Of a stretch of 64,000 bases of DNA, positions 9,303 to 51,250 are shown one piece after another; the stretch's first letter is position 1; every line of letters begins with the position of its first letter. Origin of the DNA: Candidatus Latescibacterota bacterium. Lineage in GTDB: Bacteria > Latescibacterota > UBA2968 > UBA8231. The stretch is taken from positions 4,704,001 through 4,768,000 of the forward strand of contig OZ241867.1 in assembly GCA_965203175.1 (NCBI GenBank), read 5' to 3'. Position numbers and translations under genes: made by a program. The notes under the pieces were generated by a model. That model ran no database searches. It was not told where the DNA came from and saw only the letters and a list, made by a program, of their open reading frames with translations.

Positions 9303-11183
9303 ATGAAAGTAGCGCGCTTCCTTTCCTTATCCTGGATTTTTTCTTTGGCGCTCGGTTTTTGGGCCGGCCCAGCCTCGGGTCTGACCATTTACCGGTTCGG
9401 CGGCGAAGATCGGCCCAAACCCCCTGAGGAAGGCCAGGCCGGGGTGGACTTCAGACAATTGAGCTGGATGAATTTCGATGCCGAACCTCATGGGGAAACC
9501 ATTGACTTGGCCGTAGATAGTACCGGCATCCAGCCCCTCAAGCGCAATCCAGACTTCAACATAGCCCCCGGAATCGAAGAGAAAGGAGGGGCACATTTAA
9601 GGGCCAATATAAATAGAGAAGTGTGGGATGGTGATACGGGTACTTTCTGGCTGGCGGAAAAGTATCTGTGCGCCGATCACAGTATCAGATCCGGGGCCTG
9701 CACCGATGATTTCAGTCGGGCGGGCACGGCCAATATCTACCTAGGCGGTCTCTACAACATCGACCGGATTCGGGTGATATCCGGATTTACCGACCCGGGC
9801 CGAACCGTGGGCATCCTCCGCGTCCACCTCGGCCCGCGCCCCATAGTCAACTACGGCATCGTCCCGCCGAAATCGCCCTATATTGTCGAAGTGAGAGACA
9901 ACCGGGAGCAAATCCTCGACATTCCCATCCCATCGCACGAGGCAGTAGAGTTTGTCCAGGTGGCCTTGGCCGAGCACAACACGGACTGGGAAGTGAACGA
10001 GATCGAAGTCTACGCCAAGGGGTTCGTCAAACAGGCCACTTATATTTCCGATGTCATCGATTTCGAGCGGCCTATGGCTTGGGGAGACCTGCGCTGGTCC
10101 GGGGTTCAGGAGGCCGGAGCCCAAGTTCTCATCCGGACCCGCAGCGGCCTAGACGACGATGCGGACGTATTCTGGCGCTTCACCGGTCGCGGCAGCAAAG
10201 CCGAGGTGAGTCGCGCTAGCTATAGCGACCTCAAACTCAATGAACGGGCCGGCATCACCCACGACCTCGACCACTGGACCTTTTGGTCGGCCCCCTATGA
10301 CTTTGCCGACAGCAGCGGCACGCCGGTCGTGTCGACAAGCCCCAGACGCTACCTCCAGTTCAAGATCGACTTCCTGCCCCGTGAAAACGCCGGCGGCCGG
10401 GTGGGTTTCGTGGAGTTGCGCGCCTCCGAGCCGGTGGCGACTAACCTAGTGGGCGAGGTCTGGCCGGTCGAAGCAAAAGTAGGGCAGCAATCGTCCTTCA
10501 CCTATGCGTTGCGGCCGACGATTCACTCAGGCGATGTCGGCTTTGACCGGCTGGAAATCGAGACTTCCTCAATTATCAGCGCGGTGGAGGCGGTGCGCAT
10601 CGGCGACGCGCCCGTGGCCTTTACAGTAGAAGCCGAGGAGCCGCATCGGCTGGCGGTCAGTTTCCCGCGCCTCCAGGAGCAGGACTCGGGGACGCTGGTC
10701 GAGGTCGACTTCGCAGCACAGGTGCTGCGCTACGGAGCAATCTTTGCGGCGCAGGTGTCGGACAGCGACCAGCCTTTAGAGGTGCCGCAGGGGGTCAATC
10801 CGGGAGACGCTACGACGAAATACGAGGGCAACCGGGTGTCGGTGGCCACCGCCGCGCAGGAGCAGAGGCTGTTGCAGGTGCGAGTCGAGCCGACCATTTT
10901 TACGCCCAATGGCGATGGCCGCAACGACGAGATAGGCATCTTCTATCACATCTTGGAGATTACGGGCAGTGCGCAGGTAGCAGTGGAGGTGTGGGACTTG
11001 TCGGGTCGCCGGGTGCGGCGGGTGTATTCGGGCGCGGATGGAATCGGCGAGTACGAGCGGGCGTGGGATGGTCGGGACGAGGCCGGCGGTTTGGTGCCGC
11101 CAGGGATTTACCTGTATCGAGTTTCGGTCGATGCCGATCGGGAAAAGGTCGAAAAAACTGGCGTCTTGTATGCCGCGTACTGA
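9303..11183 (+). CDS. Secreted protein with FlgD/gliding-motility-type C-terminal domain (short class)
   Basis: Signal peptide, discoidin-like region, RTRSG...WTFWSAPY module, FTPNGDGRND...WDGRD...PPGIYLY, ends LYAAY. Confidence 0.8.
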   Translation: MKVARFLSLSWIFSLALGFWAGPASGLTIYRFGGEDRPKPPEEGQAGVDFRQLSWMNFDAEPHGETIDLAVDSTGIQPLKRNPDFNIAPGIEEKGGAHLRANINREVWDGDTGTFWLAEKYLCADHSIRSGACTDDFSRAGTANIYLGGLYNIDRIRVISGFTDPGRTVGILRVHLGPRPIVNYGIVPPKSPYIVEVRDNREQILDIPIPSHEAVEFVQVALAEHNTDWEVNEIEVYAKGFVKQATYISDVIDFERPMAWGDLRWSGVQEAGAQVLIRTRSGLDDDADVFWRFTGRGSKAEVSRASYSDLKLNERAGITHDLDHWTFWSAPYDFADSSGTPVVSTSPRRYLQFKIDFLPRENAGGRVGFVELRASEPVATNLVGEVWPVEAKVGQQSSFTYALRPTIHSGDVGFDRLEIETSSIISAVEAVRIGDAPVAFTVEAEEPHRLAVSFPRLQEQDSGTLVEVDFAAQVLRYGAIFAAQVSDSDQPLEVPQGVNPGDATTKYEGNRVSVATAAQEQRLLQVRVEPTIFTPNGDGRNDEIGIFYHILEITGSAQVAVEVWDLSGRRVRRVYSGADGIGEYERAWDGRDEAGGLVPPGIYLYRVSVDADREKVEKTGVLYAAY

Positions 11184-11194
11184 AAGGTACCTGC

Positions 11195-13765
11195 GAGGAA
11201 TTGCGTTAGACTCTCAGTACACACTGGCCACGACGGTAGCCACCGTAGATTCACCAATACCCTCCGCGTCCACCTCTGGCCCCACCCGGCAGATATACAA
11301 GCCAGGCGGCAACAGCACTCCATCCCGATCCCGGCCATCCCAACTCACCTCCTGCACACCAGCGGCGTGCGCCACGGACTGCGCTCGACGGTGCACTAGC
11401 GATCCGTCGAGCGCATAGACCTCCAATAGCAGCGAAGCCTGTCCCGGCATCTTAAATACGGGAAAGACAAATTTCACCGCATCGTTGATGCCGTCTCCGT
11501 TCGGCGTGAATGGATTTCCCAGTACCTCCATATCGCCTACCAGTCCACCAGCCACTGGCGTCAGCACGGTCAGGCCCTCGCCCGAGGCCGTCGCGTCCAC
11601 TCGCTGCCACACCACCTCCTCTTCCTCGCCCAGTCCCACCGAGACGAGAAAGGCATTGCTCGCCAGATAGAACGCACTCGAAAAGCGCAGCACAACTTGG
11701 GACTCTGGCTCCCGGACCACCTCGGGCAGGCGCACCCACAACGAGTCAACTCCGGTTTTTACCTCCAGTTCATCCACCCAGTATATCTGGCCGCCCCCCA
11801 CCTCCTGTTCGCTCTCTAGGCTCACGGTCACATCCACCAACTCTACCTCGGCGCTCGGAGGCACTTCAAAGAGTACTTGATCGAACCCCATACCCTCCGA
11901 GCCCGCCTCGTTGGGCGGGATCGTCAGCGACAACGCGAACGCTTCGCGGAGACCGCTCTGCTGGGCGCGGCGCGGCGCGATTTCGCCCAGAATCTGATGC
12001 ACCAGCGGATCCCTCAAGCCGATATTGAGGCGGCGCAACACCGCGGATTGGTTGGGATCGTCCGAGAGCAGAGCAGCCTCAATCATTATATAGCGCCGAG
12101 GGCTAGGCGAGGTGATGGCCGCTCCAGGTTGCTCGTAAAACTGACTCCACGGACTCCAATCCGCCTCGTCGGGCACAAAAGCCACTGTCGAATCCCCCCG
12201 CATAAACGACAGCGTCTTGCGATAGTCGGCCTCGGAGATTTCAACCCCCTGTTTGTTGAAGAAATGCTTGTCTTCGGTGAGTCGGTTTCCGGTCCGGGTG
12301 CGGATCTGCAGTTGGGTGCCGGGCGGCGTTTGTGCCTCCCAGGAGATGCTAGAAAGGATGCGGGGGGCATCTCCCAACTCGATCGCCGGCGTTTGCAGCG
12401 TGACCTGCGGCAGAAAACCAAAGCCATAGAGCAAAAGCTCCTTTACACCAGAACGGATCAACCCGGTAGTGACGACGCGATAGTCGAACCTAAAAAAGCG
12501 TCCCTTGATAGGAGAGAAGATATTGGCCTGCATGAAGGTGTTCGTTGGCAGCGACCCGGCGGGCGCAAGAGCCTCGCGGCCAAGCGTGACATCGTCTCTG
12601 CCGCGCGCAACCACGGAGGTAAAGATCTGGCTGCCATCGGGCGCCAGACTGCCATCCGAAAGATTGAGCACATAATTGGGGAATGTGGCACTACCATAGA
12701 CAATAAAGGCGCGGTCAACCCAGTACCAGGTGCCCAAGTCCAATAAGAGGTCCCGATCCCGGTTCTTGATCAACACAGTGAAATCGTCATCTCGACTACC
12801 TATGCCCTTGGTGGAAAATCCCGCTTCTGCACTCCAGACGGTGGTATAATCGCCGTCGACTGCATTGGAATGTCCGCCCGCTTCCCCAAATCCCTTGATC
12901 GACCCGCCGCGCTCCTTCCAGCCCAGACTAATATTCTCCCCCACCGTCCATACCTCCACCTCCACCAACCGAGGACGCTCCGAACGATAATAGCGAATCG
13001 GGCCCTTAAAACGATCCTCCCGTATCGCTTCATACTCCGCCTGAGATACCTCCCGCTCTACCCCCGTCGACTCCCGACGAAAATACAACGCATCCCCCCG
13101 ATCCACCTCCGCCAATCCCTCCCAACCAGAAGCGCTCACCTCCGCCCCACGACGCCCATCGCTGGCCGTGGCCACTATCTGAACATACTGGACTAAATCA
13201 CCACTCAAACCCGAATCCGCCGACTTGGCTGGACGCAAAGCATATTCGAATACCCGCTGCGTCTTGTTCAACCCCTCGCTGCGACCAGCCACCCGGTAGT
13301 TCAGACTCTGACTGCCCTGAAAGGCCTCATCGCCATTGGAGGTGAGCACCTTGAACTGCAAAAAAGGATCGCCTACCCCTTCGGCGACGAATTTCACCAC
13401 CACTTTCTCAGCCCACACCACCCGACCTAGATCCACCTCGACCCACCAGTCGCGCAGCGGCGCGTCCAGCGCTGGCTCCCAGTAGGTTTCCTCCAGACCG
13501 TCCATGAGCTGCGCGGCCCCGGCGAAATTGGTTCCCGCCCGTCGGATGCCCCCGGTCACGTCCTCGCGGCTGAAGGCCCCCGCGTTCAGCGCGGCATTGA
13601 TCTGCCGCTGCACAAAATGGGGGCGAACCCCTTCGGCGCTAAAATCCACACTGCCGGCGGGGAAATTCCACTCCGACCAGTCGCTCTCGCTGATGATTAA
13701 CTGGTTCGGCTCAAGGCGATAGCCCTGGGCCCAGACCGGGGCGCTGAGTAGCAGGGTATAGTGAA
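11195..13765. repeat. ~2.55-kb direct repeat copy 1 (partner ~18513-21035)
   Basis: Long near-identical DNA runs; similarity extends ~20 nt past the stop (gaggaattgcgttagactctcagtacac vs gaggaatttgcgtttatactctcagtacac). Confidence 0.9.
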
Positions 13766-13781
13766 TGAGGCGCAGGTTCAT
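11214..13781 (-). CDS. Secreted protein with FlgD/gliding-motility-type C-terminal domain (long class, copy A)
   Basis: MNLRLIHYTLLLSAPVWA signal peptide, two discoidin-like regions, NPFTPNGDGIND...WDGRD, ends VASVY; near-identical to 18533-21058. Confidence 0.82.
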   Translation of the reverse strand: MNLRLIHYTLLLSAPVWAQGYRLEPNQLIISESDWSEWNFPAGSVDFSAEGVRPHFVQRQINAALNAGAFSREDVTGGIRRAGTNFAGAAQLMDGLEETYWEPALDAPLRDWWVEVDLGRVVWAEKVVVKFVAEGVGDPFLQFKVLTSNGDEAFQGSQSLNYRVAGRSEGLNKTQRVFEYALRPAKSADSGLSGDLVQYVQIVATASDGRRGAEVSASGWEGLAEVDRGDALYFRRESTGVEREVSQAEYEAIREDRFKGPIRYYRSERPRLVEVEVWTVGENISLGWKERGGSIKGFGEAGGHSNAVDGDYTTVWSAEAGFSTKGIGSRDDDFTVLIKNRDRDLLLDLGTWYWVDRAFIVYGSATFPNYVLNLSDGSLAPDGSQIFTSVVARGRDDVTLGREALAPAGSLPTNTFMQANIFSPIKGRFFRFDYRVVTTGLIRSGVKELLLYGFGFLPQVTLQTPAIELGDAPRILSSISWEAQTPPGTQLQIRTRTGNRLTEDKHFFNKQGVEISEADYRKTLSFMRGDSTVAFVPDEADWSPWSQFYEQPGAAITSPSPRRYIMIEAALLSDDPNQSAVLRRLNIGLRDPLVHQILGEIAPRRAQQSGLREAFALSLTIPPNEAGSEGMGFDQVLFEVPPSAEVELVDVTVSLESEQEVGGGQIYWVDELEVKTGVDSLWVRLPEVVREPESQVVLRFSSAFYLASNAFLVSVGLGEEEEVVWQRVDATASGEGLTVLTPVAGGLVGDMEVLGNPFTPNGDGINDAVKFVFPVFKMPGQASLLLEVYALDGSLVHRRAQSVAHAAGVQEVSWDGRDRDGVLLPPGLYICRVGPEVDAEGIGESTVATVVASVY

Positions 13782-13786
13782 CGCAC

Positions 13787-16369
13787 TCAATCCTTGGCCT
13801 GCCGACCCTCGATCCTTTCGAGGAGCCAAAGCGCCTTAGTATGCGCCGGCACCTCGGCCAGCACCTCTCGCGCAGTCTGCTCGGCCAATTCTAGTTGTCC
13901 CGCCTGCAAGGCCTTGTTGCCGCGGTCGACGATCAGGTTGGCCAAGGCGTACAGATTGTGTTTGCGCATTTGTTCAATGCGGGCCATGCGCCTCCCATCG
14001 AGCGCAGCAGAGGCCGCCTTGCTCAAGGGTTTTTCGATCTCGAGCAAGGCACCCACGGTGCGCACCTCGATATCTTGATGCGGATCGAGTTCGTAGTCAA
14101 ATCTAGGCACGTTATCCACGAGAATCCGCCCACCGCGACTTAGACTGCGCAGATCCTCGGCCGACGCTAGGAAGCTCCCCAAGACGCTGTCGGACTCGTT
14201 GAGCCACCCCGTATTCGCGTCCAGTGGGTGCCGATAGTGCAGATCACGGCGAATTTCGGGCCTCCCCAGCCGCTCTTCAAGGGCTGGGATGTCGAGCGCA
14301 AAGGTATCCGCCCGTCGGCCAATCAAGACGAACTCTGGTCCATTGAACCAGAGCTGACTCTGCGGAAAGACGCTGATGAAGGTGGCGACGATGTCGAGCA
14401 CCTGCGGCGTGGAAAGCATCCGCACTGGCACGAATTGTGTCACTAGACCGCCGGGATCTAGCCGCTGTCTGAGGCGCTGGTAAAAATCTTTGGTGTAAAA
14501 GGAAACGACGCCCGGGCGAAAGAGTTGGCCCACTTCAATGCCGATCACATCGTAGCGGGCTTGACTGTGGCGGATGTAATCCCGGCCGTCTTCTGCCAAG
14601 GCGCGCACCCGAGGGTCGTCCAGCCAAGTCGCGCCAAAGTAGCGGCGGGCGAGATCGAAAACAGCTACTTCCACATCTAGGCAATCGAGCCTATGGACAT
14701 CCCACAACAGAAACCGCCCCGCAGCTTGGCCGGTACCCATACCCACTACGAGTACATCCGTCCCATTGCCATCGCCGCGCAACAGCATGGGCAGATGACC
14801 GGCAAAGGTCTGTTGGTTCTTCTTGTTTGAACCCTGCCACAAGCGGTCAATCCCCAGCAGCACCTTGTCTTCGAGTTGCACCACGGCAAGGCTGGCACCT
14901 TGACCCTCCACTACTTCGAGCAGGGTCCCCTCGGAAGACAGATGGTCGTGGGGAAGACTCGTTTTGAGCAGGGTCGCGGCGAGCCCCCACCCGATTACAC
15001 TGAAGGCGATCAGCAAGGCAGCAACTCGCCGACCTAGCTGGCGGCCCGCTCCTGCGGCAAAGGCCACGCAGCCCCCAACAATGGCCATGCCGGTGACCGT
15101 CCTCAGCGCGAGATCAAGCCCCAACCAAGAAAGCCCCCAAGCCATGATCATTGCGCTCGCAATGGAACCTGCGGTATTGATTGCCGTCAGCCGGCCGATC
15201 GTCCAACTCGCATCGGCTACGTTCCTCGACACCAGTCGGACCACGAGGGGAAACGAAGCGCCCGAAGCCAGCGCACCCGGCAGCAACATGGCACCGTGCA
15301 GGCCCATGAAGTGGTTGGCGCTTATCAGCTCTGGAGCGGCCTGCGCGAGCGCCGTCCAGATGTCCCGGGGCAGCTTCATCGCGACTAGGACGCTCAGTCC
15401 TGTGAAAGCCTGAAGGCTGCCGAAGACGACGACTGGATGCCGACTGCGGTCGCACAGCGGCGCAATGACGAGGCTGCCGATGCCGATGCCGAGCAGGATC
15501 ACGACGAGCGGCAGCGTGTACGCGTACACCGAACTGGTAATCATCAAGGGCAGGTAGCGCGCCCACAGAATCTCGATGGCCACGCCGACAAACCCGGTCA
15601 GGAAGAACAAGGGCAGCAGGACGGAGACCTGCTGCATTCTTCCCGCGTCTGTCGCTTGGTCTTCTCGGTTGGACTGCTCAGTAAGAGGAGCGGAGTGCGT
15701 TTGCCAACAGACCAGTAGCACGGCGACGCCACACAGGACATTGAGACCTGCCCCTAGGTAGATAGTCGCGGCGAGCCCCAGAACCGGCAGGGTCGCAAAG
15801 CCAGCTAAGGCAGCCCCAGCGGCAGCTCCCAGCGCATTGATGCCGTAGAGGCCACCCGCAGTGAATCCGAGGCTGCGGTGTCGGCGGATGATCGCCCTAG
15901 CGAGCAAGGGAACCGTCGTCCCCATCAGAACCGTGGGCACGATGATTACGGCTGCCACCAAGGCCAAGCGCGCCAGCGCGATCCATGGAGCCGAGCCATC
16001 GGCCCAGCGATAGAGCATTCCGTAGCCGTCGTCGGCCACGTCCAGCAGTGCGTTGCTCGCTAGGCCCAACACCGCGATGGCCAGTTCGACGATCCCATAG
16101 ATCCGCAACGGACGGTGCAGCGACGTCGACAGACGACCGGCCAAGGCACTGCCCATGGCCAGTCCGAGGAAAAAAACGGCGAGCACCGTTGCTAAGGCGA
16201 AGGTCGTGCTGCCAAAGAACAGTCCGGCCTTTCTGATCCAGCAGACTTCGTAGAACAGGCTCGCGGCCCCCGACAGGAAAAGGCAACTGAGCGCCGTTGC
16301 CATCTCGAATGGAGAAGGACCGGACGCCCCACTGGGGGAAGCAGGCTCTAGCGCGGCCACGTTGGGCAA
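13787..16369 (-). CDS. Fused multi-TM (MFS-like)/spermidine-synthase-like SAM-fold protein
   Basis: FLSGAASLFYEVCW, FGSTT, LYGINALG, many TM helices; VLVVGMGTG, EDGRDY, YDVI, FYTKDFY. Start may be ATG 16303. Confidence 0.88.
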   Translation of the reverse strand: MPNVAALEPASPSGASGPSPFEMATALSCLFLSGAASLFYEVCWIRKAGLFFGSTTFALATVLAVFFLGLAMGSALAGRLSTSLHRPLRIYGIVELAIAVLGLASNALLDVADDGYGMLYRWADGSAPWIALARLALVAAVIIVPTVLMGTTVPLLARAIIRRHRSLGFTAGGLYGINALGAAAGAALAGFATLPVLGLAATIYLGAGLNVLCGVAVLLVCWQTHSAPLTEQSNREDQATDAGRMQQVSVLLPLFFLTGFVGVAIEILWARYLPLMITSSVYAYTLPLVVILLGIGIGSLVIAPLCDRSRHPVVVFGSLQAFTGLSVLVAMKLPRDIWTALAQAAPELISANHFMGLHGAMLLPGALASGASFPLVVRLVSRNVADASWTIGRLTAINTAGSIASAMIMAWGLSWLGLDLALRTVTGMAIVGGCVAFAAGAGRQLGRRVAALLIAFSVIGWGLAATLLKTSLPHDHLSSEGTLLEVVEGQGASLAVVQLEDKVLLGIDRLWQGSNKKNQQTFAGHLPMLLRGDGNGTDVLVVGMGTGQAAGRFLLWDVHRLDCLDVEVAVFDLARRYFGATWLDDPRVRALAEDGRDYIRHSQARYDVIGIEVGQLFRPGVVSFYTKDFYQRLRQRLDPGGLVTQFVPVRMLSTPQVLDIVATFISVFPQSQLWFNGPEFVLIGRRADTFALDIPALEERLGRPEIRRDLHYRHPLDANTGWLNESDSVLGSFLASAEDLRSLSRGGRILVDNVPRFDYELDPHQDIEVRTVGALLEIEKPLSKAASAALDGRRMARIEQMRKHNLYALANLIVDRGNKALQAGQLELAEQTAREVLAEVPAHTKALWLLERIEGRQAKD

Positions 16370-21058: not shown

Positions 21059-21083
21059 AAGATCTGCTCTACCCCCTTGCGAC

Positions 21084-23000: not shown

Positions 23001-23049
23001 GCCGCTACCTCCGGGTGTACCCCGTTCGAGGGCCGCGCACTGGCGCGCG

Positions 23050-25776: not shown

Positions 25777-25794
25777 ATGACCCCCCTGTTGATG

Positions 25795-27540: not shown

Positions 27541-27581
27541 CTACAACTCCTGCCCCTTTCGGTGCCATGCTACCACGTATA

Positions 27582-27625: not shown

Positions 27626-27664
27626 GGCGATCATGTGCAGCCAAACCTCTACTGCGCAGTGCAA

Positions 27665-32991: not shown

Positions 32992-32992
32992 C

Positions 32993-35947: not shown

Positions 35948-35955
35948 GCCACCTC

Positions 35956-37260: not shown

Positions 37261-37394
37261 ACAATCTCCTCCTCTTAGAAGCATTTTTTAACGTCGACAC
37301 AAGCGTACTTACCGCACCCTGAGTACGTCGTAGGCCGCTTGATGAATGCGCCCGACAATATCCAACTGATTGGATCGGCGTGCAATGGCCACCG

Positions 37395-38222: not shown

Positions 38223-38262
38223 GAGTCCCTCCTAATGTGAAAACTGAATCGCATGGCCCACA

Positions 38263-40322: not shown

Positions 40323-40415
40323 GGCAAACCTCCTTCTTGGAATAGGTTACAAGATAATCGCGCTGTCTCCAGCGGCAAGGCGATGAGGCGTTCCTACTTT
40401 GGCTATCCTCCGCGC

Positions 40416-41111: not shown

Positions 41112-41150
41112 GATGTCTCCTGTCGAGTTAGGTATTGAGCAGATTGCGTG

Positions 41151-42191: not shown

Positions 42192-42288
42192 GGACAATAA
42201 GCTCCTGAGTATCGTTGAGTGTGTGATATGGAAGACGCCAACTGCTCTGGTCAATCTATATCCCTGAGGATAACAAGGGCAAGCCGCC

Positions 42289-42317
42289 TTGAACGAGGAA
42301 GGGCCGCCCGCTATAAT
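42289..42317 (+). promoter_or_regulatory. Sigma70-type promoter, copy 1 of a duplicated 29-bp element
   Basis: TTGAAC-GAGGAAGGGCCGCCCGC-TATAAT. Confidence 0.75.
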
Positions 42318-42382
42318 ACCCTTGCTATTATAGCACGGAGAAGTGCCGCCGTAATCCTCGAAACAAAACGAAAGGATGAAAT

Positions 42383-43363
42383 ATGAAAATCGCTTTGGCT
42401 CTCGGACCAGACGCCAGCGCCGTATCGACTTTCGGTACCCAATGTGGAGTCGAGCATGCCGTCGGCACCTTCGGCCTCGCGCCGATACCAGATAAACCGA
42501 TCAATGACGAAGCACAGCCGTTCAGCCGCCAATCCCTAGCTCGTTTCAAGACGCAGTACGAGCAAAATGGCTATCAGCTATCGGTCATTGAAAGCCGTCC
42601 TCCCATGGAAAAAATCAAGCTAGCCCTGCCGGGACGCGACGAAGAGATCGCCGTCGTCTGCGAGTTTATCCGCAACATGGGGGCGGTCGGCATCCCGGTG
42701 TGGTGCCCTGCGTGGATGCCGATCCTCTTCGTGATTCGCACGTCGTCCGAAATCCCGACGCGAGGCGGCGCCAAGGTGACCGGCTTCGACCTTGAAGAAT
42801 TCAACAAGACCCACCCCGCCGGAGAGCATGGCGAAGTCACCGAGGAGGACCAGTGGGACAACCTGAAATACTTCCTCGAGCGCGTTGTCCCCGTCGCCGA
42901 AGAGGCGAACGTCAAGCTCGCCATGCATCCCGACGATCCGCCCCTGTCGCCGATTCAGGGCATCGCCCGCATCATCAGCAGCGTTGAGAACTACCAGAAG
43001 ATGGTCGATCTCGTTCCCAGCCCGGCAAACGGCATCGGCCTCTGTCAAGGCAACTTCGGCCTGATGACCGACGACCTGCCGAGCGTCATTCGCCATTTCG
43101 GCGAGCAGAAAAAGGTCCACTTCGTCCATTTCCGCGACATCAGGGGCACGCCGGAGAAGTTCGACGAGGCCTTCCACGACGACGGCAAGCACGATATGGC
43201 GGCCTGTGTCAGAGCCTATCGCGACACGGGATACGAGGGAGTCGCACGCCCCGATCATTTCCCGCAGTTGACCTACGAGGATTTCGTCGATGTGCACTCG
43301 ATGGAGCGCCTCTACGCCATTGGCTACATGAGAGGCTTGATCGAGGCGGTGTACAGCGAATGA
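42383..43363 (+). CDS. uxuA: Mannonate dehydratase family protein
   Basis: IES, GRDEEI, WDNLKYFLERVVPVAEEANVKLAMHPDDPP, HFVHFRD, RPDH, YAIGYMRGL. Confidence 0.85.
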   Translation: MKIALALGPDASAVSTFGTQCGVEHAVGTFGLAPIPDKPINDEAQPFSRQSLARFKTQYEQNGYQLSVIESRPPMEKIKLALPGRDEEIAVVCEFIRNMGAVGIPVWCPAWMPILFVIRTSSEIPTRGGAKVTGFDLEEFNKTHPAGEHGEVTEEDQWDNLKYFLERVVPVAEEANVKLAMHPDDPPLSPIQGIARIISSVENYQKMVDLVPSPANGIGLCQGNFGLMTDDLPSVIRHFGEQKKVHFVHFRDIRGTPEKFDEAFHDDGKHDMAACVRAYRDTGYEGVARPDHFPQLTYEDFVDVHSMERLYAIGYMRGLIEAVYSE

Positions 43364-43448
43364 CTGCGGAACTATTCGGTAGATGGCCGATCGCCCGTCG
43401 CTGGGCGCAGGTCTCCGGCTATAATGCCGTTTCTCAGGAGAATTGCTT

Positions 43449-44192
43449 GTGAAAGTAGCCATTATGGGTGCCGCCGGGTGGGTTGGCCGGGCCGTGCTGG
43501 AAAACTTTGCCGGTCGCCATCAGGTGCGCGCCTTCGATTACAGGCCCGAAGCTTGGGCGACGTACCACCGATTCGACGGCGACTGGGAGGGTGAAAAGCA
43601 CTACGGGGACATCGCCGACTTCCACGCCGTCCACAAGACCTTGGAAGGTATGGACGGCGTCGTCCATCTAGCCGCCTACTTTGGCTACGAGAACCCGCCC
43701 GAAGACGATATGAACCCCTTTCGCATCAATCTCAAGGGGATGTGGAACGTCCTAGAGTCGGCCCGTCGCCACGAGCTCAAACGAGTGGTACACATGAGTT
43801 CCTGCGTCGTACAACATCCAGACGGCCTTTTCCTATCGTCGGATGTCCGCAGCAAGGAAGGAAGCCTGTACGGCATATCCAAGCGCCTGCAGGAGGAAAT
43901 GTGCCGCCAGTTCCACGACGCCTATGGCTTGCGGATCATCGTTTTCCGGCCCTGTAGCATCGGCGACAGCAGGCTCGGCATCAGTCGAGACGGCAGCCCC
44001 GCTCGCAGCAGCGTTGGCTGGGTCTGTCGGCACGATTTGGCCGAGGCCTGCCACTTGGCGCTAACATCCGAGACCATTGACTTCGACATCATGCACACGG
44101 CTAGTCACCCGGACGCGGATAAGTACTGCAACGTCACCCGGTCCAGGGAATTGCTCGGTCTGGAGTACAAAGGGCACTTTCCCGGCGACTGA
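43449..44192 (+). CDS. NAD-dependent epimerase/dehydrogenase (uronate-dehydrogenase-like extended SDR)
   Basis: GAAGWVG, VVHLAA, YGISK; AGGAG then GTG at 43449; TATAAT upstream. Confidence 0.82.
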   Translation: MKVAIMGAAGWVGRAVLENFAGRHQVRAFDYRPEAWATYHRFDGDWEGEKHYGDIADFHAVHKTLEGMDGVVHLAAYFGYENPPEDDMNPFRINLKGMWNVLESARRHELKRVVHMSSCVVQHPDGLFLSSDVRSKEGSLYGISKRLQEEMCRQFHDAYGLRIIVFRPCSIGDSRLGISRDGSPARSSVGWVCRHDLAEACHLALTSETIDFDIMHTASHPDADKYCNVTRSRELLGLEYKGHFPGD

Positions 44193-44222
44193 CACCATTA
44201 TCCTCTTCCCAAAAGGAACACT

Positions 44223-45368
44223 ATGCCCCCCCACTACGACGTCCTACTCAAAAACGGCCATCTCATCGACCCCAAAAACGGCCTTGACGGCCCGGCCGAT
44301 CTCGCCGTCAAAGACGGAAAAGTTGCCGCTGTGGGGCCGCAGTTGCCCGGCACTGCGGAACGACAAGCCGATGTCGCCGGCCTCTACGTCACCCCCGGCC
44401 TCATCGACATCCACCTGCACGTGTACGGCGGTTTTAATGCTTGGCTCTTCCCCGATCCTCACAACCTGCCGCACGGCGTCACCACCTGCGTCGATACGGG
44501 CGGTGCCGGGTGCAAGGATATTGCGGATTTCAAAGAAACCATCATGGACCAGTCCATCACCCGCGTCCTCGCCTTTGTCAACATCGTCGGCGCTGGCATG
44601 ACCGGCCCCCCTGAGCAGGACACCACCGACATGGACCCCATCCCCTGCGCCGCTGCGGTCGAGCGCTATCCCGAGCACATCGTCGGGGTCAAATCGGCCC
44701 ACTTTGGCGGGCCGGGGTGGGAATCGACCGGCGGGGCCATTGAGGCGGCGCGGCGGGCCGGCAGTATTGTCATGGTCGATTTCTCGCCCAAACCCACCCG
44801 CACGTACCCCGAGTTGCTCGCCCGCTACAGCCCCGGCGACATCCACACCCACTGCTACTCCATGCGCACGCCCATGCTCGACGATAACGACCGCATCTTC
44901 GACTTTGTCTGGCAGGCCCGCGAGCGCGGCGTGATTTTCGACTTGGGCCACGGCAACGCCTCCTTCCGCTTCCACATTGCCGTGCCAGCTATGGCCCAAG
45001 GCTTCCCGCCCGATACCATCAGCACCGACCTGCACCGCCGCAGCCGCCTGCTGCCCAATGCCACGATGAATATCACCATGTCGAAAATGCTGGCCTTGAG
45101 AATGCCGTTGCAAGAGGTCATCTACCGCTCGACCCAGCGCCCCGCCGAAGTCATCCGCCGGCCCGAGCTAGGCCACCTGAGCGTAGGCGCAGAAGCCGAC
45201 GTGGCAGTGCTGGCCGTGCACGAAGGCCGCTTCGGCTTTGTCGATGCCACTCGCAGCACCCTGCAAGGCAGCCAAAAAATAGAGGGCCGCATGACCCTGC
45301 GAGCCGGCGAAATTGTCTGGGATCAGGACGGTTTGAGCCTGCCGTCGTGGGAGGAAGGGCCGCGCTAA
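44223..45368 (+). CDS. Amidohydrolase/deacetylase family metallohydrolase (dihydroorotase-like)
   Basis: PGLIDIHLH, GVTTCVDTG, VGVK, GDIHTH, FDLGHGNASF, ISTDLH. Confidence 0.88.
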   Translation: MPPHYDVLLKNGHLIDPKNGLDGPADLAVKDGKVAAVGPQLPGTAERQADVAGLYVTPGLIDIHLHVYGGFNAWLFPDPHNLPHGVTTCVDTGGAGCKDIADFKETIMDQSITRVLAFVNIVGAGMTGPPEQDTTDMDPIPCAAAVERYPEHIVGVKSAHFGGPGWESTGGAIEAARRAGSIVMVDFSPKPTRTYPELLARYSPGDIHTHCYSMRTPMLDDNDRIFDFVWQARERGVIFDLGHGNASFRFHIAVPAMAQGFPPDTISTDLHRRSRLLPNATMNITMSKMLALRMPLQEVIYRSTQRPAEVIRRPELGHLSVGAEADVAVLAVHEGRFGFVDATRSTLQGSQKIEGRMTLRAGEIVWDQDGLSLPSWEEGPR

Positions 45369-45377
45369 GCGCTCGAC

Positions 45378-48095
45378 CTATTGCAACCCGGCGTAGAGGG
45401 TAACAAAACTCTGGGTAGCCGTGAGAGTCTCGGCCTCCGCAAAATTCTTGCGCTCCACCACAAAACCAGCCAGAGCTTGGATCCGATACCCCAGATAGGC
45501 CGATTCCGTCACTAACTGGAAAGCCCAACTCAGCGAGTTGAAGTCCTCACTATCTCGGTCTAAATCGTTGAAAAAGGCGTACTCCATCCCGGCCTGCGCC
45601 CTAGTCGCGGACAAAAGCTGAGTCTCCAACAACACCGAAACCAACTCCAGCAGCGTCGTTTGCTTCGCCTGATCAAACAGCGACCGGCTCTGTTGCACCC
45701 ACTCGCTCTTCCAACGCGGCTCCACAGTTACGCCCCGCCAAGCGTAGCGGTAACTCGCCTTATTGATCAAGCCAAAGAAAAAGTCCGACGGAGCTAAGTC
45801 GTGCTGTCGGCGTTGTTTCGCGCTCATCAACTGCCGGAAAAGCACCCAGTTGAGCTTGCTCATCACCTGGAGATTTTCGCCCGTCAGACTGTGGCCGACA
45901 AAGAGTTGATTGACCCACGTATCCCGCGCCAACAGCGGATCGTCAAGATGCACCAACTGTCCACCCCGCAAGGTATTGTCTGGCCGCCACTGCAAGAGCG
46001 GATTGGGAATGTCGTCCGCGACCAACTGGCTCATCTCAAACAGCCGCACTCGGCCCCAGCGCGGCCACACCCGCTCGTAGCCCACCTGCACGTACGTGCT
46101 GTGATTTTTGCGGTCGGCTGAGATCTGCGCCTCGCGCAAGGCCCCGGCTTTAAACTGCCAATGCCGACCTAGCCCCACGCCGCCATAGACATTGAAGCCT
46201 GCCTGATCGCGGCGGTAGGGATAGTCCGGCTCAGTGTCGTTCTCGTACAGATCAACCCAGAAGTTGTGGTTCATATCCACGCCAAAGAGGAACTCGGGCC
46301 GGTCCACCTGGAAGCGCAGGAAGGGCTCTTGGTAATCGGGGATGTTATTGGCCTTGACGCGATTGTCGTTCTGGTTGAAGTCGGGCACCAAGTCGTTGTT
46401 CAGATCCCAACCGGGAAAAACCTGCCGATCGTCAACGAGAAAATCGGCGCGGAAGGCATCGGGGAAGCGGTCTTGGTCGTCGTTGTCTTCGACCAGATCA
46501 AAGCGGTTGCCCTGGCGAGCGTAGTCGAGTCCAGTAGTAGTAGTGACAAAAGCTTGGGTATTGTAGCGCGGGTCAATGGAATACACCTCGCCGAACAACG
46601 TGAACGGTGCCCAAGCTTTGCGGACATTCACCATCCAAGCCGGCGCACTGGGTTGGCCCTTAACCCCCGCCGAGGCCGTGTGCGTTTCCTCGGCGACGTT
46701 GGGGTATTGACGCCAACTCCAACTCAAATCGTATTCGCCGTACGCGTCGAATCCGAGCAGATCCTGCACCCGGAGGGTGCCACCGGCCACAGTGGTAGCA
46801 GTGGGCAGGCCGTAGGCAAAGCTGACCACGCCTAAATTGGAAATGTCCTGCACATTGCCCGCCGCCTGCGACACCAGCGTAAAAAAGGGATTTTCCGTCG
46901 GCGCTACGTCGAGCCGGGTAAATCCCTCTTCGCCCAAGCCGCGCACTCCCTCACCCGGATCGAGCAGTCCCAACTGGCGATCGGAACTCATCCAGACCTG
47001 ATAGTCATTGGCTAGTACCAACCGAAATTCTACTGCGACGATCTCCGCCTTGTCTGCCGCAGCCCGGTTGACAAACGACGCACTGTCAAAGTCGTAGAGC
47101 AGGCTGATTTGCTCGCTGCCGTCCGCGCTGAGAAAGCCCCGCCGCTCCAATCCCCCTTCAATCACCGGACCAAAGCGGATGTCCCGGCCCTGCTCCACCG
47201 TGCCGTCGCGATAGGTGATGATCACGTCCGAGGCGTCCGGGAAAAAGGCCGCACCGCCGAGGCCGTCCTCCGGCGAGTCGTCCCGCAAGAGGATTTCGAT
47301 CTGCCCAACTGTCTGGTTCTGTTCGTTGGTCAAAGATCCTTTGTGCAAGGTCTCCACGAGTTGGTCAGCCACACTATTGGTCTGGTGGGCGCTAACCGCG
47401 TGCAACCCCACCTCGACGAAATCGCCCACCTGCGCTGCAAAACGGCCTCCCGCCAAAGACGTGGCGTCCGTAAAGGCCCGCTCCGTCTCCTGGATGGCCC
47501 TAGGCCCTGAGATCAGCGAATGGAGGAACGTCATTTGATACTTGTCCGTGGCCAAATCCAGTTGGAATCCATTCAAGCGCGGCTTGGAAAAGGCCAGTGG
47601 CGTCAGGGTCGTGCGTAGATTGTTGCTCACTGTCAGCGCGTAGTGATACTGGCCCTTCCGGTCCCCGGCGATCACCAACTGATTAAACCATCGGTCGAAC
47701 ACATTCGTCTTGAACAGGGTGCTGCCCGCCTCCTGAGGCCGCGTCTGCGCGGTGTTGAACACCAGCCAGCCTTGGGTCAGGTAATTCCCATACAAATCGT
47801 AGAAGTAATCCCCCTGTAGATCGACTTCCACATAGCGCCGGTACGGCAGCCGCGCCCGATTGGTGTACTGCCACTGCCGCCAGTGGTATTCTTCGTATAG
47901 TTCCTGCGGCACGTACCAGCGCCGCACCGCCGGATCCAGCGCGGCCAGATACACTTCTGGACTCAGAGTCATCAGCCGAGCTTCCGCACCCTGCTGCAAC
48001 CCCAACCGACTGCCGTACTCGACCTGAGCGGCGCTGTCGCAAAAGACCGCAAGGCCGAGCAGTATGGCGAATTTTTGTCTCGTCGAGTTGCTCAT
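45378..48095 (-). CDS. Large secreted protein, putative outer-membrane beta-barrel with Asp-rich region (paralog 2)
   Basis: Shares ALDPAVRRWYVPQEL, GDYFYDLYG, VEDNDDQDR, DRPEFLFGVDMN, FFGLINKA and the C-terminal AGL(D/Q) with 23050-25776. Confidence 0.65.
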   Translation of the reverse strand: MSNSTRQKFAILLGLAVFCDSAAQVEYGSRLGLQQGAEARLMTLSPEVYLAALDPAVRRWYVPQELYEEYHWRQWQYTNRARLPYRRYVEVDLQGDYFYDLYGNYLTQGWLVFNTAQTRPQEAGSTLFKTNVFDRWFNQLVIAGDRKGQYHYALTVSNNLRTTLTPLAFSKPRLNGFQLDLATDKYQMTFLHSLISGPRAIQETERAFTDATSLAGGRFAAQVGDFVEVGLHAVSAHQTNSVADQLVETLHKGSLTNEQNQTVGQIEILLRDDSPEDGLGGAAFFPDASDVIITYRDGTVEQGRDIRFGPVIEGGLERRGFLSADGSEQISLLYDFDSASFVNRAAADKAEIVAVEFRLVLANDYQVWMSSDRQLGLLDPGEGVRGLGEEGFTRLDVAPTENPFFTLVSQAAGNVQDISNLGVVSFAYGLPTATTVAGGTLRVQDLLGFDAYGEYDLSWSWRQYPNVAEETHTASAGVKGQPSAPAWMVNVRKAWAPFTLFGEVYSIDPRYNTQAFVTTTTGLDYARQGNRFDLVEDNDDQDRFPDAFRADFLVDDRQVFPGWDLNNDLVPDFNQNDNRVKANNIPDYQEPFLRFQVDRPEFLFGVDMNHNFWVDLYENDTEPDYPYRRDQAGFNVYGGVGLGRHWQFKAGALREAQISADRKNHSTYVQVGYERVWPRWGRVRLFEMSQLVADDIPNPLLQWRPDNTLRGGQLVHLDDPLLARDTWVNQLFVGHSLTGENLQVMSKLNWVLFRQLMSAKQRRQHDLAPSDFFFGLINKASYRYAWRGVTVEPRWKSEWVQQSRSLFDQAKQTTLLELVSVLLETQLLSATRAQAGMEYAFFNDLDRDSEDFNSLSWAFQLVTESAYLGYRIQALAGFVVERKNFAEAETLTATQSFVTLYAGLQ

Positions 48096-48112
48096 AGGAC
48101 GACCGCCGCGTC

Positions 48113-51100
48113 TCAATAGGCCACGGCAATGAGGCGGACTCGGGTCTGTCCGCTAAAGGCCGTAGCGTCCGCGTCCACCTCGATCTTGCACAAATACAAG
48201 CCCGGTGCCACAACCTGCCCCTCCTCGTCTCTCCCATCCCAGATAAACCGCTGCTGCCCACCCGTAGCCAACGCCTCCAACTGCCTCACTTGACTACCCG
48301 CTAGCGTATAGATCCGCACTGCCAACGACCGCTCCGCCTGTACCCGAAACAAGGAAAAGCCGATCTCGGCCACCTCGTTGACCCCATCGCCGTTGGGCGT
48401 AAAAGGATTCGGCGCGATCGCTACCTGGGCAATGGCCGCGTCGGCCCCTTGCGCGCGAATGGCCAAGCTCTTTGCGGGACTCAGCCCAGTGACATCGCCG
48501 CCGTCGGCCGCCTGCCACGCGGTCAGGGGCTGGCTCTGCCGCACTGCAACGGCCAAGCGCGTCCCCTGCAAATACACCCGCGAGGCAAAGCGCAGCCGCA
48601 TCAATCGGCCCCGGTCCATCACCCAACCCCGCTGATCACCCAGCCTGTTGTACCGACTCTGGTCAAGACTATCACCAGCCGCATCAAAGGGCACCTGATC
48701 GCCCAAACCAACGACCTTGCGGAAGTAGCGCACCGGCCCCTGCTCGGCTGCGGCTAGCGCCTCGTAGGTTTCCGCGTCCACCTCGACCAGACCACCACTC
48801 TCCTGCCGCTGAAAGTAGCGCACCGCGCCCTGTTCGGCCTCGGGCAGAAGACTGTACGAGGTAAAGGTCAACAAATTGCGATCTAGCCCGGTGGGCACCT
48901 CGTCGCCGGGAATCACCGCACGGTAGTATACCGGCGCGAGGATTTCGGAGGATGCCCCCTGCACAGTCTCGGGAAAACGCAACCACAGCGAATCGCCTTC
49001 GGCGTGCACGGCCAACTCGGCCCCCTGCACATCGAGCAGCCGACCGTCGCCACCTCGCGCAAAGCGCTGAAACGAAGTCTCGGACGCCAACTCCGCTTCT
49101 GTGCCCAAGGCCACATCGACCAGCCGCAGGTCCAGCCCCGGCTCGGCGCGCAGCCGCACTTCGTCGAAACCTAGGCTGCGCATATTAGCTGGCTGCGCTA
49201 AAAAGTCGGGTTGGACAAAAAGAGCAAATGTGTCGAGCACTCCTGCCTCCACTGCCGTCGGCCACACCTCGGCGCGCAGCCGCTGCACCACCGGCTGATG
49301 AAGACCCACTGAAATGCGATGCAGCGCTGGCACGTGCTGACCGCCGTCGTTTTTGAGCCGCACCTGGAGCTGCATAAAGCGCCGCAGACTCGGCGAACTC
49401 GCCAATTCTCCCGGCTGCCGATACTGTTGGCTCCACGCGCTCCACCCCGGTCCGACGACCACCGTGGTATCCGAAGGCCCCTTGAGAAAACCGGCCAAAG
49501 TTCTGTATTCGTCCGCAGTCTTCTCATTGCCGGTTTTGTCGAAGTAGCGGATTTGCTGCAACAGTTGGTCGCCAGTGCGGGTGCGGATTTCCACGTCCGT
49601 ACCCGGCGGCGTGTCGGCGTCCCAGTGGACCGCACCGAGAGCCACCAGCCCCGGCAACTCGATCAAGTCCGATTCCAACACCACCTCGGCCGGCGGACGG
49701 CTGGAAAACAGCATGATCTCGGTGATCGACGACCAGAAGGCATTGACCAAAATCCCCTGCCCGGCTCCGCTTTCGGAGCGACCGCCGACAAAACCCGGAG
49801 GAAAGTGGGCAAAGACGATCAAGTCGAGGAGACGGGCTTTGAGCGGCGGATCCTGGGGATCGACAATCGAACTGAAGCGGCCCGAGTCACCGCGCGGCAG
49901 CGCTGCGGCCACGCTGTACTCGCGCTCTGGTGGACTAATGCGCTGCCATTTAAGGCCACCGCGGACGTCGCGCCCGCCAGCAGAAGCCCGCATGATATAG
50001 CCGCGCATACCCGACCCCGTAAGACGCACCTGCTCCAGCCACACTGCGCCGCCAATATCGACGGTCAGCACATTGCCGCCGGGATTGAGGGGATTGCGGG
50101 TTTGATGGGAGTAATAGGTAGCGTCGTCCCCGTCGAATGCCGTCAGCGGATTCTTACCCGGCGTGGTCAGCGCGAGCGAGCCGCCGTTTTTGACCAAGTT
50201 GATGCCGATGTTGTCGCCCCAACCCCAGGCCTCGACCTCGGCCAAGCGCGGCAATTCCCGGCGGTAATAGCCCCGCCGCCCCTGCCGCTCTGCGGCCAGA
50301 GCTTGATAGGTCGCCTCGTCCACCGGCTCCTCGCGTCCGGCCACGTCCCGCGCAAAGTAAACCACATCGCCCCGCTCGTCGGCCGACAACTCCTCCCACG
50401 CTTCCTCGGTAATCTGTTCGGCCCGCCCTCCCCGCGTATCCGTGATTACAATGCGGATGGTCTCAATGCTCTTGCCCGTCCACTCGGGCGAGGGCTTTCT
50501 CGCTTCGATCAGCAGCCTATCACTAACCACGCCGGAAGCTGGGGGCAGTTCGGGGCTGGTGTGCTCGCTTTCAAAAATGTATTCGCGCTGCGTGGTACTG
50601 GGCGCGTCCTGCGGAATGAACAGTTGGAAGCCAATGCGGCTATTCGGCTCGTGCAACAGCGCGCTCTGCCGACGCGACAACAGCATGATAAACTGCAGAA
50701 ACGGATCGCCGAGTTCTTCGCCGACGAACTGGAGCTTGAGCCGCTCCACAGGCACAGCCCGCCCCAGATCGACCTCAATCCACCACTGCTCGATGGGGTC
50801 GCGTGGGTCCGGCTCCCAAAACGTGGTCGGATCGCCGTCGAGAATACGCTCCGCTAACTGCGGATTGGACCCCACCCGGCTAATCCCCGGCCGCACCCAG
50901 TAGTCGAAGACCAGTTCGTTGAGCGTATTGCGAATCGGCTCGCCAAATACATCGAACTGCATAGTGCTGTCGATCGTGCCAATGCGCGGGTCATCCGTGT
51001 TGATGACTATCGGCCGTCTGAGCGTGCGATCCTCTAAGACATTGTACACCGTCCGCAACTGGCGCGTCCGCACGGCCCCAGCCTCGTCGATGTGCGCTAG

Positions 51101-51250
51101 ATGGGCGGGGATCTTCCACTGCCGCCAGTGCTGCGCCAGATCGACCACCACCTCGTCGCCGCTTAACTGGTAGCCCCGTTGGGCCTCAACAGGTGCCAGA
51201 CTCAGCGCCAAGCCGACAAAAATCTTCTGCACGACAAAGCTGTGTTTCAT
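48113..51250 (-). CDS. Secreted protein with FlgD/gliding-motility-type C-terminal domain (long class, ~1045 aa)
   Basis: Signal peptide, WWIEVDLGR, GDPFLQF, RTRTG...WSAWSQ, PNPFTPNGDGVNE...WDGRD, ends IAVAY. Confidence 0.82.
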   Translation of the reverse strand: MKHSFVVQKIFVGLALSLAPVEAQRGYQLSGDEVVVDLAQHWRQWKIPAHLAHIDEAGAVRTRQLRTVYNVLEDRTLRRPIVINTDDPRIGTIDSTMQFDVFGEPIRNTLNELVFDYWVRPGISRVGSNPQLAERILDGDPTTFWEPDPRDPIEQWWIEVDLGRAVPVERLKLQFVGEELGDPFLQFIMLLSRRQSALLHEPNSRIGFQLFIPQDAPSTTQREYIFESEHTSPELPPASGVVSDRLLIEARKPSPEWTGKSIETIRIVITDTRGGRAEQITEEAWEELSADERGDVVYFARDVAGREEPVDEATYQALAAERQGRRGYYRRELPRLAEVEAWGWGDNIGINLVKNGGSLALTTPGKNPLTAFDGDDATYYSHQTRNPLNPGGNVLTVDIGGAVWLEQVRLTGSGMRGYIMRASAGGRDVRGGLKWQRISPPEREYSVAAALPRGDSGRFSSIVDPQDPPLKARLLDLIVFAHFPPGFVGGRSESGAGQGILVNAFWSSITEIMLFSSRPPAEVVLESDLIELPGLVALGAVHWDADTPPGTDVEIRTRTGDQLLQQIRYFDKTGNEKTADEYRTLAGFLKGPSDTTVVVGPGWSAWSQQYRQPGELASSPSLRRFMQLQVRLKNDGGQHVPALHRISVGLHQPVVQRLRAEVWPTAVEAGVLDTFALFVQPDFLAQPANMRSLGFDEVRLRAEPGLDLRLVDVALGTEAELASETSFQRFARGGDGRLLDVQGAELAVHAEGDSLWLRFPETVQGASSEILAPVYYRAVIPGDEVPTGLDRNLLTFTSYSLLPEAEQGAVRYFQRQESGGLVEVDAETYEALAAAEQGPVRYFRKVVGLGDQVPFDAAGDSLDQSRYNRLGDQRGWVMDRGRLMRLRFASRVYLQGTRLAVAVRQSQPLTAWQAADGGDVTGLSPAKSLAIRAQGADAAIAQVAIAPNPFTPNGDGVNEVAEIGFSLFRVQAERSLAVRIYTLAGSQVRQLEALATGGQQRFIWDGRDEEGQVVAPGLYLCKIEVDADATAFSGQTRVRLIAVAY

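Follow-up and report, generated by a model that had tools for sequence, protein, structure and literature searches.

A modular cassette of putative surface lectins with Tyr-terminated tails and a modelled outer-membrane barrel in a Latescibacterota genome

What kind of cell-surface system pairs secreted proteins that all end in tyrosine with large neighbouring proteins that match no described family? The question is raised by a stretch of 64,000 nucleotides from Candidatus Latescibacterota bacterium (the window hereafter), which comprises bases 4,704,001–4,768,000 of a single 6.58-Mb contig (OZ241867.1; genome completeness 93%). The window encodes six paralogous cargo proteins, three short (S) and three long (L), together with two paralogs of about 900 amino acids (family X). 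Two copies of a modular Latescibacterota cell-surface cassette lie in it, one full and one minimal, and on balance it appears probable that S and L are lectins exported by a type IX secretion system (T9SS) and held on a cognate X barrel, probably for glycan capture. All eight open reading frames (ORFs) singled out in a first-pass annotation of this DNA were recovered at their coordinates by ORF calling, in which the start was taken as the first ATG, GTG or TTG. The pattern of paralogs in the window is far beyond chance, since the two barrels share 41% identity across 925 columns and a terminal Tyr divides the S and L tails from all other tails of their kind in the genome.

The full cassette is centered on X (908 amino acids, 23050–25776, minus strand), which starts 18 bp beyond the end of the short cargo gene S(E) (581 amino acids, 25795–27540, minus). 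It is followed by a second short cargo gene, S(D) (638 amino acids, with a Tyr-terminated C-terminal domain (CTD), 21084–23000, minus), and by the long cargo gene L(C) (855 amino acids, 18533–21100, minus). Two further cargo genes lie beyond these, the long L(B) (871 amino acids, 11214–13829, minus) and the short S(A) (626 amino acids, 9303–11183, plus), which is convergent with L(B) on the opposite strand. The minimal cassette contains the long L(F) (1053 amino acids, 48113–51274, minus) and the second X-family barrel (912 amino acids, 45378–48116, minus), whose first 4 bp coincide with the last 4 bp of L(F). S(D) is 31% identical to S(E) and 35% identical to S(A), and L(B) is a recent duplicate of L(C). 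The true starts of 11214–13829, 18533–21100 and 27665–28606 (the last being the gene for the secreted protein C, discussed below) are probably a few codons further inside.

The tails of these proteins are informative about their export. The translations display hydrophobic N-termini, in keeping with the leaders reported in the first-pass annotation, and the six C-termini are exactly as first described (LYAAY, VASVY twice, IAVVY, VAVIY and IAVAY, the last in L(F)). In a model of S(E) built from 42 family members (predicted local distance difference test (pLDDT) 91.9), residues 474–581 superpose on the CTD of Porphyromonas gingivalis PorU (6za2_B) with Z 13.2, a root-mean-square deviation (rmsd) of 2.2 over 99 residues and 24% identity. 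The CTD architecture that had been proposed for the cargo is supported insofar as FlgD_ig and CHU_C both match the C-terminus in all six proteins. FlgD_ig scores 37.1 bits in S(E), 34.5 in S(A), 30.8 in S(D), 26.2 in L(C) and 25.9 in L(F), while CHU_C, the type-B Pfam family (cut-off 27), scores 35.1–35.2 bits in the three short proteins (35.2 in S(A) and S(D), 35.1 in S(E)) and 18.9–24.9 bits in the three long ones (24.9 in L(F)). The more specific proposal of a type-B CTD receives some support from CHU_C, which exceeds its cut-off in three of six proteins, and not by TIGR04131, which stays below its cut-off in all six. The type-A model TIGR04183 (cut-off 23) gives sub-threshold scores of 17.8–20.8 bits in three proteins and misses the remaining three at E ≤ 0.01. 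The S and L tail is type-B-like and folds like a T9SS sorting domain. S and L combine the two general features of T9SS cargo, namely a hydrophobic leader and, in the S(E) model, a C-terminal β-sandwich sorting domain.

The terminal Tyr distinguishes these tails from others in the same genome. In total 16,296 genome ORFs of at least 100 amino acids were called and searched with the window proteins, and family membership was assigned by best phmmer hit. A hidden Markov model of the six tails matches 247 of these ORFs, and the match is C-terminal in 230. Every C-terminal tail that belongs to S (101/101) or L (65/65) ends in Tyr, as opposed to 0/64 of the other C-terminal CTD proteins, which end in Lys (25), Arg (22), Glu (9), Pro (4), Asp (2), Gln (1) or His (1). 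This contrast (166/166 versus 0/64) indicates that the terminal Tyr sets the cassette cargo apart as a class and is not a general trait of CTDs. Loci from other assemblies follow the same rule, with 219 of 222 S or L tails ending in Tyr (the exceptions are two His and one Phe).

Components of the T9SS are encoded elsewhere in the genome. A search for SprA, PorU and PorV, suggested by the first-pass annotation, returned SprA (TIGR04189; 490.3 and 124.4 bits) and PorU (NF033707; 632.5 bits) above their cut-offs, and a PorV-like gene adjoining PorU that scores 147.5 bits, below the 250-bit cut-off. The presence of these genes, together with at least 230 CTD proteins, speaks against the earlier suggestion that the cassette is a secretion system of its own. 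The partner of type-B cargo in other systems, PorP/SprF (TIGR03519), has a single 21.3-bit match in the genome (cut-off 90.55), which falls on the PorV-like gene, and none in the window. Since no PorP/SprF was found in the genome, the adjacent X barrel is the obvious candidate partner.

The cargo itself appears to be non-catalytic and lectin-like. S(E) consists of a signal peptide, a CBM32/discoidin domain (approximately residues 67–231), two β-sandwich domains and the Tyr-terminated CTD. In structure searches with VIA, residues 67–231 of the model match CBM32 modules (4zxe, Z 15.8, rmsd 2.3 over 129 residues; many other CBM32 entries at Z 12–15), and no catalytic domain was found in S(E) by Pfam or fold searches. 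Judged from the model, the S N-terminal domain has a CBM32/discoidin-type fold and S is a CBM32-type lectin. Pfam F5_F8_type_C (cut-off 28.2) recovers this domain unevenly. It scores above the cut-off in two of the six cargo proteins, at 29.0 bits in L(C) and 35.9 bits in L(F), and below it in two others (26.1 and 16.4 bits). The discoidin-like domains first reported for all six proteins are consequently recovered at E ≤ 0.01 in four and have no match in two. L(C) has the same general layout as S, with an F5/8 type C domain, S-type middle domains and the Tyr-terminated CTD. Among the four folded domains of S, the CBM32 domain has, across the family, the lowest mean pairwise identity (28%) and the CTD the highest (39%). 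The short N-terminal extension, at 26%, is lower than the CBM32 domain.

The 900-residue proteins had been put forward as outer-membrane proteins, and the structural model bears this out, being that of a barrel and not of a soluble protein. The model of X, built from an alignment of 51 family members (pLDDT 76.8; predicted template-modelling score (pTM) 0.74), is made up of long antiparallel strands that begin near residue 108 and continue to the C-terminus. A Foldseek search of the PDB with this model gives 97 matches at E ≤ 0.001, and all of the rows listed are outer-membrane barrels or porins, led by entries for the Deinococcus SlpA complex (7zgx, 8ae1; E 2.6e-9) and followed by MtrB, LptD and the OccAB4 porin; ushers of the FimD type and TonB-dependent receptors come lower in the list. 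The template-modelling (TM) scores of the Foldseek matches are low (0.1–0.3). A VIA search is in agreement, as all 50 of its 50 rows are barrels and the best is 7zgx (Z 13.9, 386 residues aligned, rmsd 6.2). SlpA, a 30-strand barrel belonging to the S-layer deinoxanthin-binding complex, is thus the best fold match, but it differs from X in several respects. The SlpA matches have TM-scores of 0.18–0.27 and identities of 7–10%, Pfam finds neither an SlpA_C nor an SLH domain in X, and the Asp-rich stretch of X includes an EF-hand-like loop.

In its model, X is a giant β-barrel of the outer membrane, and it belongs to a new family, which has no sequence match in Pfam, NCBIfam or the PDB. No Pfam family matches X at E ≤ 10 and no NCBIfam model at E ≤ 0.01. 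The second barrel has no Pfam match at E ≤ 0.01, and at E ≤ 10 only DUF7596 at chance level (E 0.11). A profile of the X family run against PDB sequences returned two chance-level rows (E 0.63 and 0.65). In public data the family forms 1,314 clusters at 50% identity, and in a profile search of 1.84 billion representatives the best 150 matches listed all belong to X, with no bridge to a known family among them. Three assignments were considered. A relationship to a DUF6029 cluster has an Atlas value of 0.89, below the 0.9 mark, and is a lead only. PorP/SprF can be set aside, as TIGR03519 has no match at any X coordinate. Membership in the TonB-dependent transporters or SusC is rejected too, as 0 of the 32 Plug-domain matches in the genome fall inside X genes and Pfam gives nothing for X at E ≤ 10.

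Conservation within X is concentrated outside the C-terminal strands. The mean pairwise identity is 56% in the Asp-rich stretch (residues 511–632) and 48% in an aromatic N-terminal stretch (residues 27–107), which is modelled at low confidence, and is lowest in the C-terminal barrel strands (35%). The Asp-rich stretch contains a 12-residue pattern, D-x-[ND]-x-[ND]-x3-[DN]-x2-E, which occurs in 58 of 62 X paralogs and 81 times across all ORFs. In X it reads DMNNNFWIDRFE at residue 609 (loop 609–620), and the same EF-hand-like loop is present in the second barrel at residue 614. The pattern presumably resembles the calcium-binding loops of EF-hands or dockerins. Distant X-like barrels, 25–29% identical to X in the 51-member alignment and scoring 134–215 bits, are found apart from the main family, in pairs or triplets, at genome positions 2792466–2802400, 5640422–5650904, 6156224–6164891 and 6511322–6519563.

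The window contains only a small part of what the genome encodes. The six cargo proteins and two barrels with which the first-pass annotation began are too narrow a frame, for the genome carries 62 X genes and 170 cargo genes, of which 104 are S (103 with a tail) and 66 are L (66 with a tail). The X genes fall into 39 loci, of which 38 contain S, 35 contain L, 24 contain C and 23 contain T, a DUF6785 membrane protein. For 48 of the 62 X genes the nearest cargo gene, S or L, is no more than 500 bp away, and the remainder mostly adjoin a second X. The genome has about forty cassettes, each with one to three X genes, one to three S genes and usually one L gene. S, L and X account for 8.5% of the genome DNA, a share that rises to 10.1% with C and P.

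A modelled outer-membrane barrel repeated on this scale beside putative glycan-binding proteins invites comparison with polysaccharide utilization loci (PULs). It could be argued that X serves chiefly as a pore for the diffusion or uptake of specific substrates, and that S and L are T9SS cargo of the usual kind, which PorU (through lipopolysaccharide linkage) or a PorV-like shuttle fixes to the surface and which only feed glycans to the pore. We regard this explanation as unlikely, yet it accommodates a good deal of the evidence. PorU and four PorV-like genes are present in the genome; X is in the size class of LptD, MtrB and SlpA; one of the 51 aligned X-family members matches Pfam SlpA_C (PF21620; 5.3e-5), while X itself has no such match; ABC sugar importers and sugar-acid genes lie nearby; and the X genes outnumber the matches to Plug-domain receptors (62 versus 32). 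What it leaves unexplained is why S and L have a tail class of their own and why each barrel has its own S and L partners, and X shows no sign of a plug or of energy coupling.

The association of X with cargo extends to other genomes. In species-representative genomes 552 related stretches were confirmed, and the best 80 of them were taken as related loci. These come from about 40 assemblies and have record titles naming Latescibacterota, Gemmatimonadota/Gemmatimonadaceae or Handelsmanbacteria. X is flanked in these 80 loci by S in 80, L in 63, C in 62, the peptidyl-prolyl isomerase P in 53, a PMT_2–TPR membrane protein in 38 and T in 32. The conserved neighbourhood anticipated in the first-pass annotation is hence found, both in these 80 of 80 loci with S adjoining X and in a sample of 151 genomes from the phylum, where all 85 genomes with S also have X. 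In that sample, in which related genomes are not independent and the threshold for S was stricter than that for X, X was detected in 95 and S in 85 genomes. Both are present in 63 of 63 sampled genomes of the window's own family and neither is present in any of the 51 sampled genomes of three other families (f2, 0/30; f3, 0/19; and f4), and ten genomes (families f7 and f10) have X without S at the stricter S threshold. The families f2 and f3 belong to the same class as the window's family and lack both X and S; the cassette is lineage-restricted within the phylum.

The cassette families also diverge in step. Mantel correlations between X and its nearest neighbour of each family give rho values of 0.68 for S, 0.55 for L, 0.55 for C and 0.42 for P, which 0 of 300 permutations reach. 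These correlations indicate that P, C, S, X and L are copied and diversify together, as one cassette block. The value for T (0.28) lies inside the permutation range (maximum 0.48), and DUF6785 as an inner-membrane part of the cassette has been set aside. T, which the first-pass annotation had counted in the cassette run, is a frequent neighbour and probably not a core member, showing no clear co-diversification with X.

The recurrence of P at these loci bears on a different view of export. P (30029–31951, minus) is a SurA/parvulin-type peptidyl-prolyl isomerase with a lipoprotein-like leader (Rotamase_2, 69.7 bits; SurA_N_3, 22.4 bits, below cut-off) and has 37 paralogs in the genome. Clustering of the unassigned neighbours of the 39 X loci identified it as one of two further recurrent families, the other being the PMT_2–TPR proteins, each in 33 of 39 loci. 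P is a candidate cassette-linked chaperone. If X were itself the export pore for S and L, with P as periplasmic chaperone and a CTD that is merely Ig-like, the cassette would resemble a chaperone–usher pathway. The appearance of FimD among the fold matches of X, the SurA-like gene in 33 of 39 loci and the failure to detect GldKLMN in the genome (where the controls for GldL, GldM and GldN were silent too) would fit such a scheme. It is nevertheless highly improbable, given that the S tail superposes on the PorU CTD and scores with CHU_C, that SprA and PorU exceed their cut-offs, and that S and L are multi-domain globular proteins, unlike pilin subunits.

The mechanism that we favor is one of T9SS export followed by retention on X, in which the parts and their linkage are observed and the hand-over to X, the class of ligand and any transport are what we infer. 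Sec would take S and L across the inner membrane, and SprA would provide their passage through the outer one. The Tyr-terminated, type-B-like CTD would act as a separate sorting class that hands S and L to the cognate neighbouring X, which would retain them on the surface, possibly through its Asp-rich (probably calcium-binding) and aromatic N-terminal stretches. P may assist in the folding or delivery of the barrel or the cargo, and C may contribute a further binding module to the complex. The resulting complex would bind glycans via its variable CBM32 and CBM9 modules, and each of the roughly forty diverged cassettes could take a different ligand, from the matrix of a sponge host or from food. 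Finally, the wide X barrel may pass captured oligosaccharides to the periplasm for neighbouring ABC sugar importers. A bolder version holds that the Tyr tail is a third T9SS sorting class, with the final strand of the tail docking S and L on or in the cognate barrel. The cassette would then be a T9SS-assembled, TonB-independent lectin–pore machine, an independently arisen counterpart of the Bacteroidota SusCD utilisome with some forty specificities, occupying a tenth of the genome of a sponge symbiont. We offer this version only tentatively, as a possibility that is more doubtful than not.

Several observations weigh against T9SS export with retention on X. TIGR04131 (cut-off 35) scores only 16.1–25.5 bits in four of the six cargo proteins and has no hit at E ≤ 0.01 in the other two. 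GldL, GldM and GldN (TIGR03517, TIGR03513 and TIGR03523) are unmatched in the genome, although the controls are equally silent, and GldK (TIGR03525) has only generic matches of the FGE-sulfatase type, at no more than 84 bits (cut-off 350). The genome has three more PorV-like genes, all with weak scores, and one of these could be the shuttle for the Tyr tail instead of X. Contact of X with S, L, C or P is likewise something that we infer, and co-diversification of neighbours is expected from block duplication and is no proof of binding or contact. A complex prediction for X residues 100–908 with the S(E) CTD (474–581) scored 0.00, and, having been run without controls, argues neither for nor against binding. 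There is no recognisable plug or TonB box in X and no enzyme among the cassette core genes. The genome-wide counts derive from crude ORF calling, with the first start codon and a minimum of 100 amino acids, and from best-hit family assignment, and the RNA-library contigs described next prove no transcription and rank no genes.

Sequence libraries provide information about habitat. Sampled words from 21084–28606 were found at 22–30% in five RNA libraries, four of which are labelled sponge metagenome while the fifth bears a coded organism name, at 20% in a marine RNA library and at up to 86% in DNA-type runs. Contigs from four RNA libraries (four studies) cover 27–30 of 30 bins of this region, and one 5012-nt contig from run X20 extends over X and S(E) and covers a part of C, which is not proof of a single transcript. 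As the RNA libraries containing these words are mostly labelled sponge metagenome, a sponge-associated lifestyle is indicated, and the evidence points to a sponge-associated lineage.

This habitat raises the question of whether the cassettes serve attachment or disguise and not nutrition, that is, whether they act as adhesins, or as a coat subject to phase or antigenic variation, used to attach to the sponge matrix or to avoid phagocytosis or phage, without nutrient uptake. The presence of 21084–28606 in sponge-labelled RNA libraries could be read in this way, as could the huge number of paralogs with the outermost lectin domain as their most variable part, the S-layer-complex barrel as best fold match of X and a cassette core without enzymes. 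The coverage of 27–30 bins in each of the four RNA libraries amounts to presence, as opposed to on/off switching, and says little either way, and the family also occurs in non-sponge records, for example under titles of lake and marine metagenome-assembled genomes. A purely adhesive or coat function is quite improbable in our estimation.

Among known systems, the closest arrangement to T9SS-exported lectins retained on X is type-B cargo with cognate PorP/SprF-like barrels, and the logic is the same. Type-B CTD cargo has been paired with a PorP/SprF-like partner in SprB–SprF of Flavobacterium johnsoniae and PG1035–PorP–PorE of P. gingivalis (PMC9143113, PMC12618676). As in those systems, S and L have a Sec leader and a C-terminal β-sandwich sorting domain with an FxPNGDGxND-type start, for which CHU_C exceeds its cut-off in three of the six. 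The barrel gene lies directly beside the cargo gene in many cognate pairs per genome, and the cargo is non-catalytic and adhesin- or lectin-like. In contrast to the type-B systems, the partner X is of about 900 amino acids and belongs to a new family rather than to PorP/SprF, the tails are sub-threshold for TIGR04131 and end in Tyr, SurA-like and CBM9-like genes travel with the pair, and barrel–cargo binding is putative here. The scale also differs, as 12 type-B substrates are reported for F. johnsoniae (PMC12618676), compared with 62 barrels and 170 cargo genes in this genome.

The SusC/SusD PULs and their utilisomes (PMC7618045) are similar in having tens of diverged loci, an outer-membrane barrel with surface glycan-binding proteins and nearby sugar importers or catabolic genes. 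The cassette is like them in logic only. X has no Plug or TonB-dependent receptor domain, no SusD-like lid is present, the binding proteins use a T9SS-type tail and not a lipoprotein route, and the core contains no glycoside hydrolases. Among the open-access papers searched, none was found on DUF6785 or on Latescibacter with type IX secretion or T9SS, and papers on Latescibacter in connection with PULs, the outer membrane, discoidin, CBM32 or sponge symbiosis do not describe the cassette. Passages of PMC4454575 and PMC12993501 do not mention it.

The five families S, L, X, C and P fill a tenth of this genome (the 10.1% given above), yet none of them has a described function. If T9SS export with retention on X is correct, the sorting of cargo by the T9SS goes beyond the two CTD types known so far, and its partner barrels extend beyond PorP/SprF. 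It would also mean that an uncultured phylum within the FCB group (Fibrobacteres, Chlorobi and Bacteroidetes) has its own modular solution to glycan capture at the outer membrane, and it would offer a handle on the recognition of host or food glycans by sponge-associated Latescibacterota.

C (313 amino acids, 27665–28606, minus) is a secreted, CBM9-like protein without a CTD. It has no Pfam hit at E ≤ 10, hence no match to PF06452 (CBM9), and the CBM9 likeness comes from its Atlas neighbour clusters (0.97, 0.97 and 0.93), in which CBM9_1 is found on 37%, 13% and 100% of members, which is a lead only. The genome encodes 32 CBM9-like C genes and 10 from a sister group, and 35 of these 42 carry a short C-terminal tag, seen in C as TAVE..TWGHIKATFAE. 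The tag follows approximately TAVE-x2-3-[ST]W[GA]x[IVL]K, then 2–6 residues, without a membrane helix, and is also found on a PD40 propeller encoded at 39177–40322 of the window. A regular expression for its core occurs 94 times in all ORFs, 86 of them within the last 16 residues. The 51 carriers outside C are mostly small leader-bearing proteins, some of them in tandem arrays at 1.361–1.376, 4.966–4.984 and 5.057–5.066 Mb of the genome. The TAVE-type tag may be a third sorting or docking signal. The PMT_2–TPR proteins, membrane proteins with a GT-C glycosyltransferase-like PMT_2 domain and C-terminal TPR repeats, have 84 paralogs, none of them in the window, and make up 2.3% of the genome. 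Cargo or components of the envelope might be glycosylated by them.

The order of the main run, read as CBM9-like, short, 900-residue, short, long, DUF6785, spermine-synthase fusion and long, was given correctly in the first-pass annotation, and its intergenic gaps range from −43 to 168 bp. T (16370–18364, minus) is a polytopic DUF6785+DUF6784 membrane protein (410.6 and 106.7 bits, above the Pfam cut-off) with 56 paralogs in the genome, many of which stand alone. M (860 amino acids, 13787–16369, minus) is a fusion of a membrane domain with a spermine/spermidine-synthase fold (Spermine_synth, 40.5 bits), with eight paralogs, and is an occasional cassette neighbour. L(B) and L(C), which are 83% identical over 867 columns, flank these two genes, and a recent local duplication or insertion is therefore suggested.

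Between the two cassettes (31963–45368) lies a group of genes that fits a sugar-acid catabolic context. A sugar-type ABC importer (31963–37284) comprises two MalK-like ATPases, two permeases and one binding protein. The same interval encodes an amidohydrolase, a class-A β-lactamase-family protein, the PD40 propeller, a GFO/IDH/MocA oxidoreductase, a UxuA mannonate dehydratase, an epimerase and a second amidohydrolase. Divergent from L(F) is a histidine kinase with HisKA and HATPase_c domains (51304–53403, plus), which could be a regulator.

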